DNA of 41,052 bases from Candidatus Latescibacterota bacterium (GTDB taxonomy: Bacteria; Latescibacterota; UBA2968; UBA8231), in the NCBI GenBank assembly GCA_965205655.1, contig CBDBIJ010000103.1, positions 1 through 41,052 of the forward strand, in the 5' to 3' direction. A program made the position numbers and the translations under genes. Numbering within the stretch: position 1 is the stretch's first letter; every line of letters begins with the position of its first letter. Under the pieces are notes generated by a model. The model was not told where the DNA came from and did no database searches. It was given only the letters and a program-made list of their open reading frames with translations. Positions 43-13,906 of the stretch are shown in pieces.

Positions 43-67
43 ACCACATGACTTGAAGACCGGAGCG

Positions 68-889
68 ATGACGCCGACCGAAGGCACTAAGGCAATCTCA
101 CAGTGGAAGCTGGAGCGCTACCTGCTCGAGGAGCTGCCGCGGCACGAGATGGAGCAGATTCGCGAGGCTCTGGAGCAGGATGCGTCGCTGAGCGAGCGTC
201 TCGAGGCATTGCGGATGTCGAACGACGATGTCCTCGAGAAGTACCCGGCCGCCTGGATGGCGCGCCGCATCGAGCAACGGGCTCACACCGCTCAGGCAGC
301 TCGGGGAAAGCGCGGGTGGCTGGCGCAACTGTGGCCGGCGCCGGCGGCGCTGGCGGTAGCGGTGGCGGCGATTGTGCCCTTGCTCGATCCACAGGAACGG
401 GCGGAGGAGGTAGTTGATGGGCCCAGCCTCATCCGCGCGAAGGGCCTCGAGCCTCACCTCATAATGCACAGAAAGACCGAGTCCGGAGCCGAGCTTCTGG
501 AAAGCGCCGCGGCGGTGGAAAAGGGCGATCTGATTCAGATCCAGTACGTCGCCGCCGGACGCGGTTACGGCGCCATCGTATCGATCGATGGGAGAGGGAG
601 GGTGACGACGCATCTTCCCGCTACTGGAGGCGAGGCTGTTGCGCTGACGAAGACGGGCGCCGTGTCGCTGCCCTTCGCCCTCGAGCTCGACGATGCGCCG
701 CGCCGGGAGCGATTCTACTTCGTGACGTCGAGAGCGCCCTTTTCGATGAGCACGGTGATCGCCGCGGCGCAAAGGCTGGTGAGTGCGGAGGTGGAGGGCA
801 GTGGGGGAAGTGATTCGCTGAGCGTGCCCACACTACTGGAACAGTCGGTGTTCGTACTGACCAAAAACCGGAGGGTGAGCGAGCGATGA
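68..889 (+). CDS. ActD-like putative anti-sigma protein (N-terminal helical domain, TM segment, DUF4384-like C-terminal domain)
   Basis: N-terminal 'WKLERYLLEEL' anti-sigma-like helix, hydrophobic APAALAVAVAAIVP segment, 'RAKG' linker, 'GDLIQIQY...SIDGRG...LDDAP..ERF' C-terminal domain; stop overlaps the next ATG (ATGA); ATG at 68 preferred over TTG at 53. Confidence 0.6.
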   Translation: MTPTEGTKAISQWKLERYLLEELPRHEMEQIREALEQDASLSERLEALRMSNDDVLEKYPAAWMARRIEQRAHTAQAARGKRGWLAQLWPAPAALAVAVAAIVPLLDPQERAEEVVDGPSLIRAKGLEPHLIMHRKTESGAELLESAAAVEKGDLIQIQYVAAGRGYGAIVSIDGRGRVTTHLPATGGEAVALTKTGAVSLPFALELDDAPRRERFYFVTSRAPFSMSTVIAAAQRLVSAEVEGSGGSDSLSVPTLLEQSVFVLTKNRRVSER

Positions 890-2628
890 CGGGAAGACGG
901 CTTCTCGTCGCGGTCGCGGCAATCCTTCTGAGCGGCATCGAAGGCACAACGGCAGCAGAGGAGCTGCACCGCTTTGTGCTCTCGGCCGGAGCCAACTGGG
1001 GTGGCGCCGATCGCGTGAAGCTGCGCTACGCCGTTTCCGATGCTCAAAGGTTCGCCGAGGTGATGGTGCGAATGGGCGGAGTGGAGGAGGACCGGCGGGA
1101 GCTCCTCGACGAGCCGGACCTGCAGCAGTTCCGCGACGCCATGGAGCAACTGGGCACGCAGGTGGCGATGTCGAGCGGCGGTAGAGTTGAGGTCGTCATC
1201 TACTACTCGGGACACGCTGACGAAAACGGACTGCTGCTCGGGGAAGATCGGTTGAGCTACCGAGAGCTGAGGCGGTTGATGGATGCCATCGACGCCGACG
1301 TGCGAATCGCCGTTCTGGACGCCTGCGCCTCAGGCGCCATCACGAGAATCAAGGGCGGACAGCGCCGCGAGGCGTTTCTCGTCGATGTTTCGTCAGACAC
1401 GCGAGGGTATGCCTTCCTGACATCGAGCTCGGCTTAGGAGACGGCGCAGGAATCGGACCGTCTGCAAGCGTCCTTCTTCACTCACTACCTCATCTCGGGC
1501 ATGCTCGGCGCGGCGGATGTCTCGAAGGACGGCAAGGTGACCTTGAGCGAGGCGTATCAGTTCGCCTTTCACGAGACACTGGCGCGCACGGTCGACACCC
1601 AGGGCGGAGCCCAGCATGCGGCATACGATATCAATCTGTCGGGCACGGGTGACGTGGTGCTGACGGACGTGCGCGAAACATCGGCGGCATTGCTGCTCGA
1701 CGAGCACCTGGCAGGGCGTCTCTACGTGCGCAACAGCGAACACGACCTGGTCGCCGAGCTGTTCAAGCCGGAGGGCCGCACAATGGAGCTCGGTCTGGAG
1801 CCCGGGCGCTACGACATTCATCTCGAACGCGAGGAGGAGCTGCTGCTGGCCAGCGCCGAACTGACGGATGGATCGCAGGTCACCGTCAGGTCGGATCAGT
1901 TCGAGCCGGTGCCGAGGCAGCCGACGGCCCTGCGCGGTGGTGGATTTCCGCCACTCGGGCAAACGGGCCTCGGGGGACTGGAGCGCCGATCGCGAATCGA
2001 GATTCACATCGGCAGAGTCGGGCCGCGGCCGCGGGATCCCTCATTGCGGCAGCTGGAAGCGGCAGGAGCGCCGGAGGCGACGGAAGCGGATGCGGCCTTC
2101 GATCGCATCGAAGCTGTGGCCCTGCCGACTGATGTGGAGCCATGGAGTCTTCTGGCGGGGCTCACGTTCGGCTACTGGATACGTGAGGACGTGGCGCTCA
2201 CACTCGGCTTTTCAGCCTTGGAGAGTAGCGTCAGCAACATCACGGGGCCGGATGCAGTAGACAATGCGCTCAGCACCGAGGATATAAGCTTGAAGTCAGT
2301 CATGCTCGGCGCGAGTCGCTACTTCAGTGTGCCGGCACTTCCTCCATCAGTGCGGGTGCACGCCGCGGCCGCAATAGGGACGTTCATGGGCACAGTCGAG
2401 GGCAGGACTGTCGGGGGAAACGAGCTCACCTGGAAGGAGACGACGCGATCTTACGGCGGGCAGCTTGGGGCGGGCATCGACGTGCAGTTGAACCGCCATT
2501 TCATGCTCGGCGCCAGGGGGGGTTACAACATCATGGCGGATTTCGATAAGGCGCTGGGCGGCCGCAGCAACTACGGCGGCCCAGAGTTCAACTTGAGTGT
2601 GAGCTGGCTACTGGGGTCGGGATCATAG
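886..2628 (+). CDS. Secreted caspase-family (peptidase C14) protein with C-terminal outer-membrane beta-barrel-like domain; one in-frame TAG at 1435-1437
   Basis: Signal-peptide-like N-terminus; YYSGH and VLDAC catalytic dyad; after the TAG the same frame continues as ETAQESD...SFFTHYLISGMLGAAD; ORFs 886 and 1501 share a frame; C-terminus has amphipathic strands ending FNLSVSWLL. Confidence 0.8.
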
Positions 2629-2633
2629 GAGCC

Positions 2634-3956
2634 TCAACGGGCTCCCAGATGACATCTGCACTGCGGTCGGGTCGAGTGAACGCCGATTCGGTCGGTCCTG
2701 GCGCGACTGTCGTACTCCCAAATCCCTTCGGGCACGTTACCAGCCAGCAGCTCGCGGACCGACCACGCCATCAGTGCGCCCGTGATGGCGTTGCTGGTGA
2801 CGACGGATGTCTCCACGTGCACGGTGCAGCTGATCGTGTGGGTCTCCTGGATGGCGAGCCGGTCGATGTCCGTAAGGCACGATAGGCAGCTGGTGTGCCC
2901 CGGCACATAGGTCGCGGAGGAGCCGCCCATGGCTGAGGTGCCTCCCGATATGAGGATCGCCCTCCTGCTACCGGCGACGCCGTTGAGAAAGGCCCGCACG
3001 GCGAAGTTGTCGGGGCAGGCGGCCAGCAAGGCCCGGCCCGGTACGTGCTCGACAGTGCCTTCGTCTACTCTCATGCCGTAGCCGTTGATGGCGATGCTCG
3101 GAAACAGGGCCTTGAGCCTGGAGGCGAGAGCTATCGCCTTCGATTTTCCGACCGAGTCGAAGAACAGAACCTGCCGATTCAGATTCGTTTTCTCCACGGT
3201 GTCATCATCGTAGATGTGCACCGGCAGGCGAATTCCCAGCATACCAGTCGCCAGTCCGAACCACGTGCCCAGGGCGCCGGCGCCGATGACAGCGAGGCCG
3301 TCACAATGAGGCCGGAACGGGCGTTTGTGCTCGGGCTCGCAGACTCCCGGGAGCCGGGAGAGGGCGATGAGATGACGCTCGGTTGTGCGTCCGGCTTCGT
3401 TCGACAGCGGCAGCACGACCTTGCGGATTTCGTCGACGAGCAGGCCGGCGATGATCTGGCTCATCAGCGGCCACTCCTCGTGCTGGCAGACTCGCAGCGT
3501 CAACGGATCTGTCGCCGGGACTCCCCAGAATCCGACTGCACCGGCAGCGCCACCGGCGACGACCGGAAAGCTCGTCTCCCGCGCCAGCTCGCGAGCCAGC
3601 AGCAGATTGTCGACGTCGTTGCCGGCCACGATGACGCCGCCGAGGTTGGGCAGTTTGCCGATCAACGCGGCTGACACCCGCCTTTGCAACGGGTAGATCT
3701 TTACTTCGGGATTGACGCGGCGCAGGAGCGAGGCCCAGGCTTTGTTGGAGGAGCGAAGCAATACGTCGAGGCTGTTGATGCCACTCTCGCGCCGCTGCGC
3801 ACAGCCGAAAAGCGCTACGTTGCCGAATCCCATGGCGGTAGCCATGAGAGCGGCCAGAAAGGCGGTGGGGCCGGAGCCGACGACCGCGAGGGTCGCTTCC
3901 GTCAGCCGGCTCTGATCCCAGCCGTCGATCGCCTGTTGTCGGGCGTAGCGCTCCAC
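2634..3956 (-). CDS. Tandem ThiF/E1-like ubiquitin-activating enzyme (degenerate N-terminal plus intact C-terminal adenylation domain)
   Basis: Domain 1: ERYARQ..I.GWDQSRL..ATLAVVGSGPTA. Domain 2: VIGAGALG, DDDTVEKTNLNRQ, VGKSKA, CPDN..R, CLSC...CRCH Zn ligands, candidate catalytic Cys in TISCT, SVVTSNAITG. Confidence 0.9.
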   Translation of the reverse strand: MERYARQQAIDGWDQSRLTEATLAVVGSGPTAFLAALMATAMGFGNVALFGCAQRRESGINSLDVLLRSSNKAWASLLRRVNPEVKIYPLQRRVSAALIGKLPNLGGVIVAGNDVDNLLLARELARETSFPVVAGGAAGAVGFWGVPATDPLTLRVCQHEEWPLMSQIIAGLLVDEIRKVVLPLSNEAGRTTERHLIALSRLPGVCEPEHKRPFRPHCDGLAVIGAGALGTWFGLATGMLGIRLPVHIYDDDTVEKTNLNRQVLFFDSVGKSKAIALASRLKALFPSIAINGYGMRVDEGTVEHVPGRALLAACPDNFAVRAFLNGVAGSRRAILISGGTSAMGGSSATYVPGHTSCLSCLTDIDRLAIQETHTISCTVHVETSVVTSNAITGALMAWSVRELLAGNVPEGIWEYDSRARTDRIGVHSTRPQCRCHLGAR

Positions 3957-3968
3957 AGTCGCCGCCTC

Positions 3969-5239
3969 TCACGCAAACATCGACATCACTTTGGAACGGA
4001 TGCCGCGTCGCGGGCGATCGTACCAGTACACGGGCAGACTGCGCTTGCGCGCTTCGTTGAGGCTGATCGTACGTCGCCCTGTCGCCTGGATGGGGTGCAG
4101 GACGGCGTTTGACGGTTGATATCCGGCACACAATGTCAGCCGGCCGGACTCCAGGTGACGGAGGAGGGCCTCCTCGAGGGGGAGGCGGTAGAGCTCATTG
4201 AAATAAGGGAGGCCGCGCGGCATGCAGACGAAGTGGCCGTTACCCATGAAGCTGACGAACATGTGGCGATAGGCGTGCAGCACTTGCACCGCCTGCGAGG
4301 TGATGACCTGCCGTACATCAATAGAAGTAATGGCGATACCGATCTCAGCGCCGTCGAAGTGGTAGAGTTTGCGGTCGACGCCCTCGATGACATAGGGGGG
4401 CAGCCGGTAGCTCAGGAAGTGCCGACCGCCCGGAGTGCGGATGACGCTGTAGCGGTCGTCGTGGTAGAGATCGCAGTGCTCGCGGCTGCCGATCTGGTGG
4501 GAAGGGAGGGCAGCGCAGACGGCGTCCCTCAACAGCGAATCGTAGCGCCCGACCGCCGCCCGCGTCGATTCGGTACGCAAGCCGATGAACTGCTGATCTT
4601 GAAGCCTAAAGACGAAGCTGCCGCGCCCGCTCGAGCCGAAGAAGGGAACGAGTTGATACCAGCGTTCAGCGATGAACGCGAAGCGGTCGTCCAACTCGGG
4701 CACGAGCGACGGCTCGAGTGCCGCAGCGGCGGGAGGTCGCTTTCTTTCAGGTCGCTGATGTCGCAAGTCCTTCAGAAATGGAATGAGCCTGTCGTAAACG
4801 AAGGCGTCGACGCGGTCCGCGATGATGGCGGAGGGTGTTAGACCCGGTCTGTCGAGCTCGGCATAGGCACTTCCCGCCGAAGCGGCGGCCCAGTGCCTCA
4901 GGCTCGGCTGGCGCAGGCGGACGGCGCGCGCCAGCAAGCTGCCGAGCGTTCCGACGAAGTGGACGTAGCCGCTGAAGGTGTCGAACTCGACAGACCGATC
5001 TTCGGGTGCGTGACTTTCGGAAACGACGAGGCCGACGCGTCCATCGACGACGACAACATTCCGATGGCGTTGCAAGCCGAGGACGGAGGCGACGCTGAGG
5101 GGGAAGGGAATCGATCGGATTTGCTGGTCATGGTGCAGGCAGCGCGGTTCGGGTGGGGGGCGGTAGTGGCGCGGAGTCGGCCGGCAGGCGCATGGGAAGC
5201 GCTCCAGAGGCGACCGCCGGGTCGAGCGCCGCTGTCATG
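3969..5239 (-). CDS. Uncharacterised protein with C-terminal E2/UBC-like motif; probable frameshift in the G run at 5155-5160
   Basis: The 368-aa ORF frame stays open upstream to about 5235; removing one base of the G6 run joins it to ATG 5239 (or ATG 5373); YRHMFVSFMGNGHFVCM at 4221-4272 resembles the UBC HPNV...GxICL signature; lies between the Ubl and E1 genes. Confidence 0.6.
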
Positions 5240-5376
5240 ACGCCGCCATGCTGGCGGTAGACGCCCATGCGGGAATACAAATCTCCTCGCCGTACCCGCT
5301 GTGGGCGCCGGACGAGGTCTTCCCGGGTGCGGCGCTCCCTGTGGATGCGACGAACCGTGGCCCCACCGTTCATTCG

Positions 5377-5669
5377 TCAGCCACCGACGTGAGGCTGACT
5401 CACCGTGATCTCGACGTTTTCACCTTCGGGAGGCATCAACTCCCTCAGCGGCATGTCGGGCGTTGCCGTCTGCACACTCTTTCCGGATCTGACCTCTATG
5501 GTGGACTGCGGATCCCTCATGGCCTGGCGGATTTGACTCGAGACCTGGGCGTCTTCGGACTCGTCGAGCAGGTATTCGATCTGTTGGCCCACCGTGGTTC
5601 GAAGCTCCGTCGGCTCGACCTCCGTCTCCGTCGCTTTCTGGATGCCGTAACGCAAGGTGTCTGGAACAT
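5377..5669 (-). CDS. Ubiquitin-like (beta-grasp) small protein with C-terminal diglycine, about 97 aa; probable 1-nt deletion near the start
   Basis: Ends ...VEITVSQPHVGG-stop; GAGGAGGA Shine-Dalgarno (5677-5684) lies 7 nt before ATG 5669, which is 14 nt from the in-frame TTG 5655; restoring one base gives MFQ(x)TLRYG; first gene of the operon containing the E1. Confidence 0.75.
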
Positions 5670-5725: not shown

Positions 5726-5754
5726 AGGGTAACATATCTATTGACATAAGTCAA
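5726..5754 (-). promoter_or_regulatory. sigma70-type promoter for the Ubl-E2-E1 operon
   Basis: Minus strand TTGACT(5754-5749)-N17-TACCCT(5731-5726) with an extended -10 TG. Confidence 0.55.
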
Positions 5755-5770
5755 CCGAAAACGTTACAAT
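5741..5770 (+). promoter_or_regulatory. sigma70-type promoter overlapping palindrome TTGAC-N4-GTCAA
   Basis: TTGACA(5741-5746)-N18-TACAAT(5765-5770). Confidence 0.55.
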
Positions 5771-5784
5771 TGTGGCTAATTCTG

Positions 5785-5813
5785 TTGACTCGCCTCGCGG
5801 CGGCGGGTATCTT
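5785..5813 (+). promoter_or_regulatory. Second sigma70-type promoter upstream of the HTH gene
   Basis: TTGACT(5785-5790)-N17-TATCTT(5808-5813), followed by AAGGAGG at 5824-5830. Confidence 0.55.
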
Positions 5814-5847
5814 CAAGCCTTACAAGGAGGAACGAACCGAGCCATTG

Positions 5848-6396
5848 ATGACGTTCAAACTGAAGGAACAGCTCGACCGTCCAGGGGCGCCGACTCAGGC
5901 GGAGCTGGCGCGCAGAATCGGCGTGCCGCGACAGCAGATCAACCGGCTCGTCAACGGTGATATCGAGCGCATCGACCTGAAAACACTGGATCGAATCTAC
6001 CGGGCGTTAGGTTGCAGAAGTGTCGAAGAATTAATCGGTTATGAGCCAGAGGAGCCGGATCCCTCATCCTTTCGGGAGCGCTTTGTGGCGCAGCTGATAT
6101 CACTGACGCTCTCCCCGGTCCAGCGCGACAGCCGAGAGATCTTCACCGATCCAGCGGTGAGAAAGGCGGCGGAGGATTTCTTCGACCAGCATATCGCCAA
6201 GGACCTCGAAAGTGGGAGTATTCTGGCCAGCCTCCACGCCCGGCTCATGCAGGGGATGCGTGACTTCGTGACCAAGTTCGGCGCCAAGTCGGTCGGCAGG
6301 TCCACGAGGGTAGAGGACCTTCCGAGCGCCCAGGCCGAGGAGATCGAGCGCCTCGTCAGAGAGATCCCACTCGAGGGAATGGACCAGCGAGGCTGA
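5848..6396 (+). CDS. XRE/Cro-C1 family helix-turn-helix regulator with unknown C-terminal domain
   Basis: TQAELARRIGVPRQQINRLVNGDIERIDLKTLDRIYRALGC..EELI; start at ATG 5848 or TTG 5845 downstream of the SD. Confidence 0.85.
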   Translation: MTFKLKEQLDRPGAPTQAELARRIGVPRQQINRLVNGDIERIDLKTLDRIYRALGCRSVEELIGYEPEEPDPSSFRERFVAQLISLTLSPVQRDSREIFTDPAVRKAAEDFFDQHIAKDLESGSILASLHARLMQGMRDFVTKFGAKSVGRSTRVEDLPSAQAEEIERLVREIPLEGMDQRG

Positions 6397-6707
6397 CCGG
6401 ATCCATGTCTTTCACTCCTCCCAACAACGCTCGCGCCCTTTCTCTTGCCCTGTTCTTTACCTGGCTTTACATCGCCTGTGTCTTGTGGTGGCATGTCGCC
6501 TCGCGCGAGCAGCTCGACGTGCTTTCTCTGGTGGGCGGCAGCATGAGCGTGGGAATTCTCGTCTACGGCGCCTCCGTCATTCACCGGATGTTCCTGGCAA
6601 ACCTGCTCCCCTTCGGCTATAACCTCTTCGGCACAATCTGGGGAATACCGGTAGCCCTCGTGTGGATTCTGCACATCCTGGCCGGTGTGATCGTCGTGGT
6701 ATCGCTA

Positions 6708-7863
6708 GTGCTCTGTTAAAGAGTCGGCATTGAGTTTTGGACTTTGGTCAGCTTGGAGTTGTCCGTGTTCTTGTTTCGCCATCTCAGGTACTCCTGGATG
6801 CGCTGGCCGACTTCTCGATGATCGTTGGGATCGCTGTTTTTGATGACGAAATAATGGGCTGCCGTGAGGTGACATTCGAGCCGATTCATCCATGACGCGT
6901 TGGTGGCGGTGAAGACCGGCGAGACCTGGTTTCGTCTGCACCACTGCAGGATCGGCGGTGTCTTGTGCGTCGACAGATTGTCCATGACGACGTAGATCCG
7001 TTTCGCCTTGGGATAGCGCAGCCGAATGGCCTTGAGAAAATCGAGTACGATCGATGCGTGCTTCTTTGGTTTGTGATGCATCCACAGGATGTCCTCATGG
7101 ACGTTATAGGCTCCGAAGAAATAGCTGACGCCGCCGTGGCGGCTGTAGGTTGCCCGATGCCGGACCGGGCGCTTCTGCGGGGCCCAGGAAGCGCCGGCAT
7201 GCGGCTTGATCTGGACCGGTCCCAGTTCGTCGAAGCAGACTACGACCGTGCCTTTCGGCGCCCGCTTGTAGAGTCGGTTGATGCGTTTTTTTTAGAGGCA
7301 AACTCCGGGTCCTTGGATTCCTTCCAGGTGCGCGTCCGTTGATAGGTCACCTTATGCTGATCCAGGATTTTCCCGATGGTCACATGCGAGACCTCAGGAA
7401 TCATCTGCCGTCCCACCAGGCAGTCGGTCAGCTTGCGCAACGACCACTGATTGAACGGCTGACCGAACGCACGGGGAGGCATCTTGGCGATTTCCACCAC
7501 CACGGATTCGTCTTCCGGCGTCAATTTCGAAGGACGCCCCGGACGTGCCCGCGTGCGCAACGCCGTCAATCCCCCTTCGTTGTATTGGCGAATCAACTGG
7601 CGAACGTACTCCTCGTGCAGATGCAGCGTATCCGAAATCTCTTGGACCCGCATTCCCTGGACGCTGAACGAGATCAACTGCCCACGGCGCATCTGCACGG
7701 CGCTGCGAGGCCGCTTCAGCCATCGCACCAGTTCCTTCGACTCCGCCACGTTCGGTGAACGAGCATGAAGACACATAGCTTGACCCTCCTGAAGAATTCG
7801 CCATATATCTCCATGATACCACGACTTACGACAAAGTACAAGCTCCATTTCTTAACGGAGAAC
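6708..7863 (-). mobile_element. IS630-family insertion sequence (1156 bp)
   Basis: TA duplication at 6706-6707 and 7864-7865 within CTAG; imperfect terminal inverted repeats GTGCTCTGTTAA / GTTCTCCGTTAA; encloses a transposase. Confidence 0.92.
6716..7776 (-). CDS. IS630 transposase, OrfA (HTH) plus OrfB (DDE) joined by a -1 shift at A8 (7286-7293)
   Basis: SD AGGAGG then ATG 7776; RPGRP and WSLRKL in OrfA; CFDE, VMDNLSTHK and SWMNRLE DDE motifs in OrfB. Confidence 0.9.
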
Positions 7864-9686: not shown

Positions 9687-11525
9687 TCAAGCAGGTGGGC
9701 CGGTGGCGGACACTCGCTTCAGGGCGAAGCGCTCACGGTCAAAACCCTTCAAGGTGGCATCGAGGCGTTCGATCTGCAGGCTGGAGCGATTCGCCGCCAA
9801 GAACGAGGCGACTTCCTCGTCACCGTAGACGCTATCCGAGATGACCACATCACCGCCTTCGGACAGTTTTTCGAGGCGTGAAGCGATATTGACGGTGGAG
9901 CCGAAGTAGTCCAGGCGGTCGTTCAGGGTCACGGCGATACAGGGGCCGAAGTGGATTCCCGCCTTCAGCTTGAATGCGGCGACCTTGTCCCCAGCCGAGG
10001 CGAGCGCGGTCTGGGCCTCGAGAATGGCTTTCACTGCACTCAGCGGCCTCGGGAAGACGGCCATGACAGCGTCGCCCATGGTCTTGATCAGCGTCCCGTC
10101 GGCCCCTGCGATCGCCTCCCTGACCACGTCGAAGTGGCTCATGACGAGACCGAAGGCCGTGGCGTCGCCGATCTCATTGTAGAGCTGGGTCGAGCCGTAG
10201 AGGTCGGTGAAGACGACGGTGAGGCTACCTACACTAATGCGTTCGCCGGGGCGCAATGCTTCCGAAGCGAAAAGATCACGAAAGCGCTGCAGTGCGGTCA
10301 CTTCAGCTCCCGTGACCGCCTGATCGCTCAGGGCGAGCCGCTCGAGAATGAGCAGCTGCTCTTCTTCGGTTTCATTCCTGAGCACGAGGTTCGCCCCTCG
10401 GTGCACCGACAGCTCATCGGGCGACCATCCCTCTCGCACGCTGACCGCCGCCTCCGCCTCTCCACCCGATGTGCAGGCGATGTACTGGCCTCCAGCCAGT
10501 CGCAGCGCCCGCAGACGGTGGCGTCCGTCTTCCAGTTCCACTTCCACTTCCCGAGACTCTCCAGGTTCGAGCAACTGCTGCACCACGACGTGAGGCGTGA
10601 CGCGCGGCCCGGCGATGCAAAACTCACCGATCAGGATGTGACGGATAGAGGGATTGGGATGAAAGGTCAGCTCGACAGCACGATCGAAATTGATCTCGAA
10701 ATCGATGTTGCACGTATCGCAATGCACCTTCGGTTCGACGCCCGCCAGAGAGGGGGTCTTCGCCTTCGCGCCACGGCACAGTGGACAGAGAAGGTGCCAT
10801 TCGAACTCGAGTAGTCCAACTCGAGTGGCCACGAGGCAGGCCTCGAGCACGGTGCGACGGGGAAGACCCCACACATCGGCCAGCTCGTAGGGGCGCAGCT
10901 GGCTGGCGGTCATGTCGTCGGCGTGTCCGACCAGATCGGCCAGCGGCTGCGTGATGGTGGTGGGAACACCTTCTGCAACGAGCCGCTGAGCAGCCACCTC
11001 GAGCCGTCTTCGTCCGCCCTCGGTGAACTCAACGCTCGCCGTGCGCGAAGAGGGCCCCGCGGAAACCGGTCCCTGCGCCGCCGCCTGGTCATAGCGCCTG
11101 AAAACGGCCGAAAAACTGCGGGCGCCGAGAATGCCGATCTGAACGGGAATGGCAAGGCGCCCGAGAATGTTGCGCGGTGTCGCCCAAACCTCGTAGGTCA
11201 ACCGGGTGCCACCGTCGGGCAATGTTGCCAGGACGGCGCGAACCCGCATCTCCTCGACGGGACCACGACTGTAGCGGCGAACGACTCCGAAAGAGCTGGG
11301 TTCCACCCACTGGAATGGCTCTTCCTCCCATTCCACCGTGATCCCGAACTTGGAGAACCTCAGGTTGCGCCGGGCATTGAAGAGTGTTTGCCCGGGGCTC
11401 GGGTCCAGGGCCGGCAGCCCGGTATCCATGTTGAACCGGTTCGTATCGGCGACGAGCGGCCACAGGGCTTCGCGGCTGGAACGAAGCGTCCACTGCCAGT
11501 GATAGTGGTATTCTTTCAGTTTCAT
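9687..11525 (-). CDS. Class III adenylate/guanylate cyclase with N-terminal SRPBCC-like and DUF5939-like Zn-ribbon domains
   Basis: VVFTDLYGST, IKTMGDAVMA, GIHFGPC, DYFGSTVNIASRLE; CPLC...CDTC. Confidence 0.9.
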   Translation of the reverse strand: MKLKEYHYHWQWTLRSSREALWPLVADTNRFNMDTGLPALDPSPGQTLFNARRNLRFSKFGITVEWEEEPFQWVEPSSFGVVRRYSRGPVEEMRVRAVLATLPDGGTRLTYEVWATPRNILGRLAIPVQIGILGARSFSAVFRRYDQAAAQGPVSAGPSSRTASVEFTEGGRRRLEVAAQRLVAEGVPTTITQPLADLVGHADDMTASQLRPYELADVWGLPRRTVLEACLVATRVGLLEFEWHLLCPLCRGAKAKTPSLAGVEPKVHCDTCNIDFEINFDRAVELTFHPNPSIRHILIGEFCIAGPRVTPHVVVQQLLEPGESREVEVELEDGRHRLRALRLAGGQYIACTSGGEAEAAVSVREGWSPDELSVHRGANLVLRNETEEEQLLILERLALSDQAVTGAEVTALQRFRDLFASEALRPGERISVGSLTVVFTDLYGSTQLYNEIGDATAFGLVMSHFDVVREAIAGADGTLIKTMGDAVMAVFPRPLSAVKAILEAQTALASAGDKVAAFKLKAGIHFGPCIAVTLNDRLDYFGSTVNIASRLEKLSEGGDVVISDSVYGDEEVASFLAANRSSLQIERLDATLKGFDRERFALKRVSATGPPA

Positions 11526-12654: not shown

Positions 12655-13906
12655 GTGGTTCAACTAGGTAGCAGTGCGGGGTAGAGACGCTTGAGCTTGA
12701 TTCGTGCATCCGCCGTCGTGAAACGCCAATTGATGACGGGCGGGTTTTCGAGGCGCTCCGTGAGCCAGGCCTTCACGTGTTTTCCCAACTGCTGGATCGT
12801 CGCGATGCGACGATTGAGACATTGCCGAAAGAGCACGTTCAGTCCGATCTCGGCCATGTTGAGCCAGCTGCCGTGTGTCGGGGTGTAGTGGATGTCGAGT
12901 TTGTCAGCGATGCGCTTGGCTTCCTCCGGTTCGAAGACCTCGTAGAGGGCCGCCTTCTTATGAGTGCTCAAGTTGTCCATCACCAGCGTGATCTCCTCCG
13001 CCTCAGGGTAGTGGACGTCGACGAGATCTCTGACGGTGTGAGCCCAGTCTCTCATCGTGCGCCGTTCGCTCACTCGGACGTGGGAGCGACCCGTGAAGGG
13101 CTCCAGCATCATGAAGACGTTGGCGACCCCGTTGCGGACGTATTCATGGTGATACCGTGCCGGACACCCCGGCGCCACCGGCAGGGGCCGCTGCGTTTCG
13201 CCGATCAACTGCTTGCTTGTCTCGTCCAGACAAACCAACGGGTGCTTCGGGTCGTACGGCCATTGATAGACATCCAACACGTCCTCCATCGCGCAGACGA
13301 ACTCGGCACTGGGTTTGCCCGGCAGGCACCACATCTCCCGCCGCCAAGGCTTCAGCTCGTTTTTTTTAACGTCTTGCGGACCGTTTCCGGGCTGACACTG
13401 TCAACCAGCTCCAAGGCCACGAGGCGGTCTGCCAGCAGCTTCAGGGTCCAGTGCTTCCTCCCATCGGGGGGCTCACTGCAGGCCAGAGCCACCAGATGGG
13501 CTTCGGCTCTGCCGTCGATCTTGTTCGCTTTCCGATTCTTCTGCTCGTTGCGCAGCAGCGACGCCTCGAAGCCCTCTTCCACAAACCGCTGGCGCAGACG
13601 CTCCACTGTGCTCGGATGCACGTCGAGCGCGTGCTCGATCTGCTCATCGGTCCAGTGCTCACCATGCGGACCCTGGTCCGTCTTCAGCAGGATCCTCGCG
13701 TGCCGTTGTTTGTAGGCCGCCGCCTTCCCCCTCGAGATCAAACCGCGCAGATGAGCTCGCTCCTCTGCTGTCAGCGTGACGATGTACTTCTTCTTAGGCA
13801 ATGTCGATCTCCTCCTCTCCTGACAAAGGGGCCTCAGGAGAAGGATACGAGCCCCGGCCTCAAAACGCTAGTTCCAATGTCCCGCAATCCTAACTGGATG
13901 AACCAC
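12655..13906 (-). mobile_element. IS630-family insertion sequence (1252 bp), distinct from the first
   Basis: TA duplication at 12653-12654 and 13907-13908 within ACTAGT; inverted repeats GTGGTTCAACTAGGTAG / GTGGTTCATCCAGTTAG. Confidence 0.92.
12660..13801 (-). CDS. IS630 transposase, OrfA plus OrfB joined by a -1 shift at A8 (13360-13367)
   Basis: KKYIVTLT..ER, WTLKLLA, LKK(N)ELKPW; CLDETSKQL, VMDNLSTH, SWLNMAE. Confidence 0.92.

Follow-up and report, generated by a model that had tools for sequence, protein, structure and literature searches.

A candidate E2-fold conjugating enzyme with duplicated modules in a probable ubiquitin-like conjugation operon of a Latescibacterota bacterium

Can a bacterial ubiquitin-like protein (Ubl) conjugation operon do without a peptidase and still choose its targets without an E3? 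The described bacterial Ubl-conjugation operons (Bil, Bub and class 6a-6e) have a peptidase, and for them the choice of targets in the absence of any E3 is still an open question. In the parts of the class survey drawn on here (PMC1779556), the E1s of classes 6a-6e always have a JAB that is fused or adjacent, and one report on Bil (10.1101/2023.09.04.556158) describes its DUB as essential. The stretch of DNA analysed here, referred to as the window, comprises positions 1 to 41,052 of contig CBDBIJ010000103.1 from Candidatus Latescibacterota bacterium. In the window, a gene for a large protein lies between the gene for a small protein ending in GG and the gene for a two-domain E1. This position, together with a predicted E2 fold and a conserved cysteine, Cys284, makes the large protein the likely conjugating enzyme in a Ubl pathway of three genes, which would tag protein lysines with neither a linked protease nor an E3. 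Residue numbers throughout are those of the 368-aa ORF 3969-5075 on the minus strand, to which 99 is added for full-protein numbering.

Reading frames and gene order of the operon

The preliminary description of this DNA, made from the sequence alone, presented the large protein as an orphan with a cryptic E2/UBC-like C-terminal domain and a start at either 5239 or 5373, depending on an indel in a run of six Gs. All of the segments that it cited are found inside ORF 3969-5075 (minus strand), and codon 4224-4226, which it gave as a Cys codon, is TGC and encodes Cys284. The start does hinge on the G6 run (5155-5160): when a one-base frameshift there is read through, the gene occupies 3969..5373 (minus strand) and encodes 467 aa. 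Dropping one base anywhere in 5128-5237 produces this single frame, which aligns end to end with homologue P0002 (52% identity over its length). The full-length homologues P0002-P0006 and P0008 begin with MNGG.TVRR, which in the window is encoded by the short ORF 5128-5373, and they start at the position equivalent to 5373. That start was chosen and the one at 5239 is ruled out. A near-identical strain (run X2, one record over the stretch; 46 substitutions and 7 gaps in 4001 bases against the window) has one G fewer, lacking the base at 5155. It also shows a private indel at 4813, and an additional base after 5658 with which the upstream small gene would extend to its ATG at 5669. Run X1 is the same as the window at these sites and may be the window's own source. 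No RNA holder was listed.

The E2 and Ubl genes are each frameshifted in the window, and it could be argued that the family is functional but that the genes here have decayed into a cluster of pseudogenes. Both one-base frameshifts are matched by run X1, and IS630-type genes lie close by. Against decay, X1 may be the source of the window itself, X2 restores both frames while having its own indel at 4813, single indels occur at other places of the operon in genomes G098, G099 and G105, as expected of long-read errors, and the catalytic residues are all intact. We regard a pseudogene cluster as very unlikely, and both window frameshifts are most likely long-read errors rather than decay.

The Ubl candidate lies immediately upstream, at 5377..5669 (minus strand), and would have 97 aa were a base missing from the sequence near 5658; the called ORF, 5377-5655, has 92 aa. 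It ends in HVGG followed by the stop codon. The GG-stop ending is found in 10/10 of the Ubls and a His-x-Gly-Gly ending in seven of the eight that were aligned. Searches of Pfam, NCBIfam and PADLOC gave no match for it and a profile search of PDB sequences was empty; its sequence pattern is one that we take to resemble a beta-grasp. The E1 gene, 2634..3956 (minus strand), starts 13 bp after the E2 stop and encodes a 440-aa tandem-ThiF protein with RYxRQ, GAGALG, a CxxC at 358/361, Cys375 and a C-terminal CxC. Its RYxRQ is N-terminal and there are two ThiF stretches, which by sequence suggests an IAD-AAD layout, inactive followed by active. Cys375 aligns with the crossover-loop cysteine of ThiF/MoeB with no inserted domain, and it is present in five of the six E1 rows covering the site, the exception (L020) being frameshifted.

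The order Ubl, E2, E1 is found in the window and in loci L002-L005 and L018-L022, which are not all independent, L002 and L005 being near-identical and L019 and L020 belonging to one genus. Two further loci, L006 with E2 and E1 and L023 with Ubl and E2, are ended by contig edges. In related loci there is no gene between E2 and E1, and the genes downstream of E1 vary. The Ubl and E2 profiles match the same 7 of 168 genomes of the phylum, one of which, G099, belongs to the same family as the window's genome. A predicted complex of E1 with E2 (ORF residues 1-362) scored 0.54 (runs 0.02, 0.71 and 0.54) against 0.00 for the best control. The mark was reached by 116/157 solved and 2/215 mismatched pairs, and at scores up to 0.60 by just 18 solved pairs and both mismatches; agreement between runs is at least 0% of contacts, the partner has a pLDDT of 65 or more, the output gives no interface, and E1:E2 pairs may pass through likeness to solved complexes. 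This model-based score lends weak support to the pairing.

Could the operon instead serve a sulfur-carrier pathway, with the small protein as a ThiS/MoaD-like carrier that E1 converts to a thiocarboxylate, and the large protein as a sulfur-accepting enzyme of E2-like fold? ThiF and MoeB are the best profile matches of E1, its crossover loop is short and ThiF-like, and GG-ended carriers need no JAB. Yet genes for rhodanese, desulfurase, ThiG and MoaE are not conserved in the loci, and the partner has a predicted E2 fold with His-x-F...Cys. The E1 is moreover an inactive/active tandem, as are BilD and eukaryotic E1s in the part of 10.1101/2023.09.26.559546 drawn on here. These points make a sulfur carrier highly improbable, and we retain the conjugation reading.

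Three ORFs at 53-2628 (plus strand) converge on the E1 gene of the window and were not seen near the operon in other loci: an anti-sigma-like/DUF4384 ORF (53-889, a weak match), a caspase-domain ORF (886-1437) and an ORF encoding a beta-barrel end (1501-2628), the latter two of which may be one frameshifted caspase-barrel gene. A 612-aa protein with DUF5939 and an adenylate/guanylate cyclase domain is encoded at 9687-11525 (minus strand). In genome G042, an ARPP-1 (PF20208) gene lies at L021:4482-5375, about 1.3 kb downstream of E1.

Conservation, predicted fold and layout of the large protein

The large protein is no orphan: when 1.84 billion representatives were scanned in full with an HMM, 125 relatives were found at E<=0.001, 54 of them at 1e-30, after word-based searches had returned 15 and then 21 matches. 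Named clusters among the 30 matches looked up comprise four Woesearchaeota, 'Euryarchaeota archaeon SM23-78', one Latescibacterota and one Gemmatimonadota. None of 24 family members had a meaningful E in Pfam, and the NCBIfam, PADLOC and PDB-sequence libraries gave no match for the E2, PADLOC having no family for either E2 or Ubl at E<=1. Sixty of 62 distant relatives were likewise without a Pfam match; that of P0115, to EsV-1-7 repeats, is probably spurious, and that of P0136, to GST_C_2, is under its cut-off. All ESM Atlas matches fell below 0.9 and were mainly to viral clusters lacking names, and no relatives were found on viral contigs, phages or plasmids. In the literature searched no description of the operon or of the E2 family was found; the supplementary operon tables of the Bil and Bub papers could list such loci. 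The predicted E2 family appears to be new, falls outside all profile libraries used and reaches Woesearchaeota.

Conservation was counted over the rows covering each position among 116 new distant relatives. Cys284 (4224..4226, minus strand), the predicted catalytic cysteine, is found in 25/25 close and 94/98 distant rows, and His271 (codon 4263-4265) in 91/95 distant rows. The cysteine, whose conservation in homologues had been proposed as a check along with that of the histidine, is therefore kept. Among the distant rows, F273 is present in 86/98, G318 in 96/98, F92 in 58/63, P99 in 61/62 and H327 in 55/94. A second cysteine, Cys316, is invariant among the 25 close sequences; kept in just 38/99 distant rows, it is ruled out as the catalytic residue. 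The spacing from His to Cys is 10-13 residues, and canonical E2s have an HPN...C spacing of 10. Position 272 is Pro in 47/98 and Met in 46/98 distant rows, so that the motif reads HPF in distant members. At the position of the HPN Asn, Phe occupies 86/98 distant rows and Asn none; this Asn is not universal among E2s. A profile of 24 distant members and the close profile could be aligned along 349 columns (E 1.9e-26), a span that takes in helix 1 and the two modules described below; these members had been chosen with the close profile, and the match gives the extent of homology and is not an independent detection.

To what fold does this conserved region belong? The AlphaFold2 model of the full-length homologue P0002 (56% identical), built from 24 rows, has a pLDDT of 79.3 and a pTM of 0.71. 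When it was used in a VIA search of 48,161 chains, a UBC/RWD/UEV fold was present in 50/50 among the matches listed, fold being assigned by our reading of PDB titles. The best match was Pex4p (Z 7.5, rmsd 4.2, 136 aligned), with UBE2G2 at Z 6.9, BubB at Z 6.3 and Cap2 at Z 5.0, and a Z under 8 is middling and possibly reflects a common arrangement. The result nevertheless carries weight because the list is uniform and agrees with the motif and the genomic context. Foldseek, which had been suggested as the check on the E2-like region, was not significant: against the PDB and viral models it returned nothing at E<=0.001 for the P0002 model or for the model of P0023, the 224-aa C-terminal half from G042, the best E2 rows being several to UFC1 (E 0.17-0.48) and one to Rad6 (E 0.41). 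Most VIA rows cover residues ~172-424 of the P0002 model with 110-136 aligned, and this region starts at ORF residue ~86. The UBC fold that had been proposed for the last ~150 aa is thus borne out by the VIA search, whereas its confinement to those residues is not. The tools returned ranges rather than a residue superposition, and Cys284 is placed as the putative E2 cysteine by motif order. An E2 fold with Cys284 active is very likely. Fold, conservation and the Ubl/E1 context, which the earlier proposal did not cite, agree with that proposal of a new prokaryotic E2 family with Cys284 as catalytic residue: the predicted fold is related to UBC, and homologues keep the cysteine.

From the N-terminus, the protein begins with a conserved basic helix, MNGG.TVRR.HRER (5332..5373, minus strand). 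A linker of low conservation comes next, for which the model of the homologue has pLDDT <50. The features that follow all lie on the minus strand. Module 1 (residues 5-56, 4908..5063), defined by the model and profile comparison, consists of two beta-hairpins and a helix. A helix with F92 and P99 (residues 83-109, 4749..4829) is probably E2 helix 1, judging from the structural alignments and conservation. Module 2 (residues 130-190, 4506..4688) is the repeat of module 1, and the E2 core (residues 209-336, 4068..4451), delimited by the model and conservation, would comprise a beta-meander, H271-M/P-F, C284, the crossover helix and a loop with H327. In the P0002 model the four strands and helix are present twice (91-139 and 219-279). 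The weak internal repeat suspected earlier is a real duplicated module of ~55 residues. With 25 sequences the repeat comparison scored 11.2, which 5/60 shuffles reached; the support came with 64 sequences, for which residues 5-56 match 130-190 over 52 columns (probability 87%, E 3.6e-6) and the score of 25.7, against 12.0 for the best column shuffle, was reached by 0/60. The two 12-mers first noticed are the terminal helices of the two module copies. As parts of the larger models that were searched, the modules have no recognised fold. Module 2 seems, in the model, to sit inside the E2 fold, after helix 1 and ahead of the beta-meander, as part of an insertion of ~100 residues. The idea of a sensor, substrate or E3-like region fused to an E2 holds only in part: there are extra modules, but helix 1 appears to lie within the N-terminal part that had been called unrecognisable, and a module seems to interrupt the fold.

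The E2 gene of G042 is split. Its two ORFs at L021:8087-10085, of 253 and 224 aa, are separated by ~260 bp within module 2, the first having helix 1 and the second the catalytic core; there is no HTH gene, and IS-like and integrase genes lie upstream. The split may be natural, or else the gene is broken. The model of its C-terminal half, P0023, is without the helix at ORF residues 83-109, and its VIA scores are below those of P0002. E2-fold chains make up 9/50 among the VIA matches listed (Z 5.0-5.5) and are the sole rows with >100 aligned residues, the other 41/50 being mostly helical-hairpin noise.

Proposed pathway, its control and the absent protease

A protein conjugation pathway is quite probable, and its steps may be proposed from the E1/E2 chemistry described for Bil in the part of 10.1101/2023.09.26.559546 used here. 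The active ThiF domain of E1 would adenylate the terminal Gly of the Ubl, no trimming being required, and E1 Cys375, on its short ThiF-like crossover loop, would accept the Ubl as a thioester. The Ubl would then move to Cys284 of the E2, aided by His271, and from there to a target lysine. Choosing the target, in place of an E3, likely falls to the duplicated modules and to the basic helix at the N-terminus.

Divergent from the operon is a gene for a Cro/C1 HTH protein (5770..6396, plus strand; HTH_26, E 7.5e-14), with which homologues align from residue ~25 on. About 60% identical over the whole protein, it has a conserved C-terminal domain of ~110 aa with no family match, which could act as a sensor or could itself be a target of conjugation. 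Behind it a small hydrophobic protein, probably a membrane protein and also without a family match, is encoded at 6405..6719 (plus strand). The HTH gene is present in 7/11 stretches and the small hydrophobic gene is co-conserved behind it in 6/11; both are absent from L004, L021 and L023, though the upstream DNA is present there. Two IS630-type transposase pairs (HTH_32 and DDE_3) lie at 6716-7848 and 12660-13801 (both minus strand), the first abutting the small membrane gene. In the divergent intergenic region, the palindrome TTGAC-N4-GTCAA (5741..5754) is a candidate operator over a sigma70-like -35 box. It is the single match in the window against 0.03 expected, and close variants are found at the same place in 5/11 stretches, with looser ones in L019 and L020. 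The HTH protein likely represses the operon at this palindrome.

No JAB is linked to the operon: in 6/6 genomes checked, the best Prok-JAB match is on another contig or at least 0.22 Mb away. The best JAB gene of the window's genome (L024:529-1956, G000:C105) follows a gene that we take from its translation to be cysteine-synthase-like, and is unlinked to the operon. A JAB beside such a gene is the sulfur-pathway arrangement 4c in Table 1 of PMC1779556, the part of that survey used here. Since the Ubl is already GG-ended and needs no processing, the protease can be missing. Since the DUB is essential in Bil, a protease-less operon would need another safeguard, and the divergent repressor with its promoter operator is a likely one; an irreversible tag would be controlled via induction and not removal.

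What might such a tag be for? By analogy with Bil, stress-induced or antiviral tagging would be the likeliest role, and inducible defence is our best guess, to which we give slightly less than an even chance. It is based on analogy, on the patchy spread and on repressor linkage, which is noted for Bub in the part of PMC11601596 drawn on here. Known defence genes were not among the sampled flanks, which hold metabolic, signalling or IS genes. The same chemistry could serve another end, with the E2 mainly tagging the Ubl itself or a host protein, such as the linked HTH or membrane protein, for regulation, and an unlinked protease, such as the single JAB of the genome, removing the tag. Flanks that are not defence-like, the co-conserved HTH and small membrane genes, and the Prok-JAB found elsewhere in every genome checked are consistent with it. 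The patchy spread, however, is more in keeping with an accessory or conflict locus than with a housekeeping one, and the JAB of the window's genome sits in the 4c arrangement, as far as the cited table goes. Tagging of self or host proteins for regulation is accordingly an unlikely use, and inducible tagging as in Bil is preferred.

More speculatively, and with considerable doubt, the operon could be viewed as part of a prokaryotic ubiquitination lineage, so far undescribed, of which it would be the bacterial branch and which DPANN archaea would share. The E2 would then have a eukaryote-type HPF...Cys site and in-fold target-selection modules that serve as a built-in E3. In Latescibacterota, this branch would have dropped the protease and would make an irreversible tag switched on solely by the divergent repressor and a small membrane sensor. 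Three genes, cysteine-based chemistry and a ready GG tag would make this the smallest kit for testing whether a DUB is dispensable, and the same kit would probe whether modules embedded in the E2 select targets. An E2 family that spans bacteria and Woesearchaeota also bears on the origin of eukaryote-type E1/E2 pairs.

Comparison with known systems

Types I and II of BilABCD, in the parts of 10.1101/2023.09.26.559546 and 10.1101/2023.09.04.556158 used for this comparison, share with the operon the order Ubl-E2-E1, a stand-alone E2, the lack of an E3, and an E1 that combines an inactive with an active adenylation domain and has four Zn-type cysteines as well as an N-terminal Arg. They differ in that Bil has a BilC/JAB gene between E2 and E1, where there is a 13-bp gap here; the Ubl here is GG-ended with no tail; the Bil E1 has a helical CYS domain of ~80 aa, where 13 residues separate the CxxC (C361) from Cys375 here; and the Bil E2 has CEHH, whereas this one has 467 aa, an upstream H-x-F motif and duplicated modules. 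The PADLOC match of E1 to BilD is just 16 bits. To judge from sequence, the operon would work like BilABCD and is not a member, as it has neither the DUB nor the CYS domain and lies outside the sequence families.

Bub (6E/DUF6527) also has Ubl, E2-fold and E1 genes, often linked repressors and a Type II without JAB, according to the parts of PMC11601596 and PMC11601603 consulted, and BubB is among the fold matches of the P0002 model. Those parts describe Bub as forming Tyr/Ser oxyesters with an E1 and E2 that have no catalytic Cys, unlike the E1 and E2 here, which keep their cysteines, and as having gene fusions and the DUF6527 protease, unlike the separate genes here, with no conserved extra gene seen in related loci. 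Class 6d/PRTRC (Prok-E2_D, PF14460), as far as the part of PMC1779556 used here describes it, is similar in its small Gly-ended Ubl, its stand-alone E2 and E1 and a His downstream of the Cys (here H327), and a weak language-model lead (0.84, to a cluster 39% PF14460) points the same way. The 6d E2s are without the classical upstream His, whereas this family retains H271. A JAB and an alpha-helical protein belong to 6d, the E1 of the present operon is tandem, and profile searches gave no match of the E2 family to PF14460.

The best structural matches are eukaryotic UBC E2s (Pex4p, UBE2G2, UbcH5 and UFC1), with which the family shares the order His...G-x-hydrophobic-Cys and, in about half of the distant relatives, HPF. 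Identity to them is 5-14%, Phe stands here for Asn, and they differ from this protein in its N-terminal module, its basic helix and its insertion of ~100 residues after helix 1. The operon is a new variant among bacterial Ubl-conjugation operons, with an unclassified, module-bearing predicted E2.
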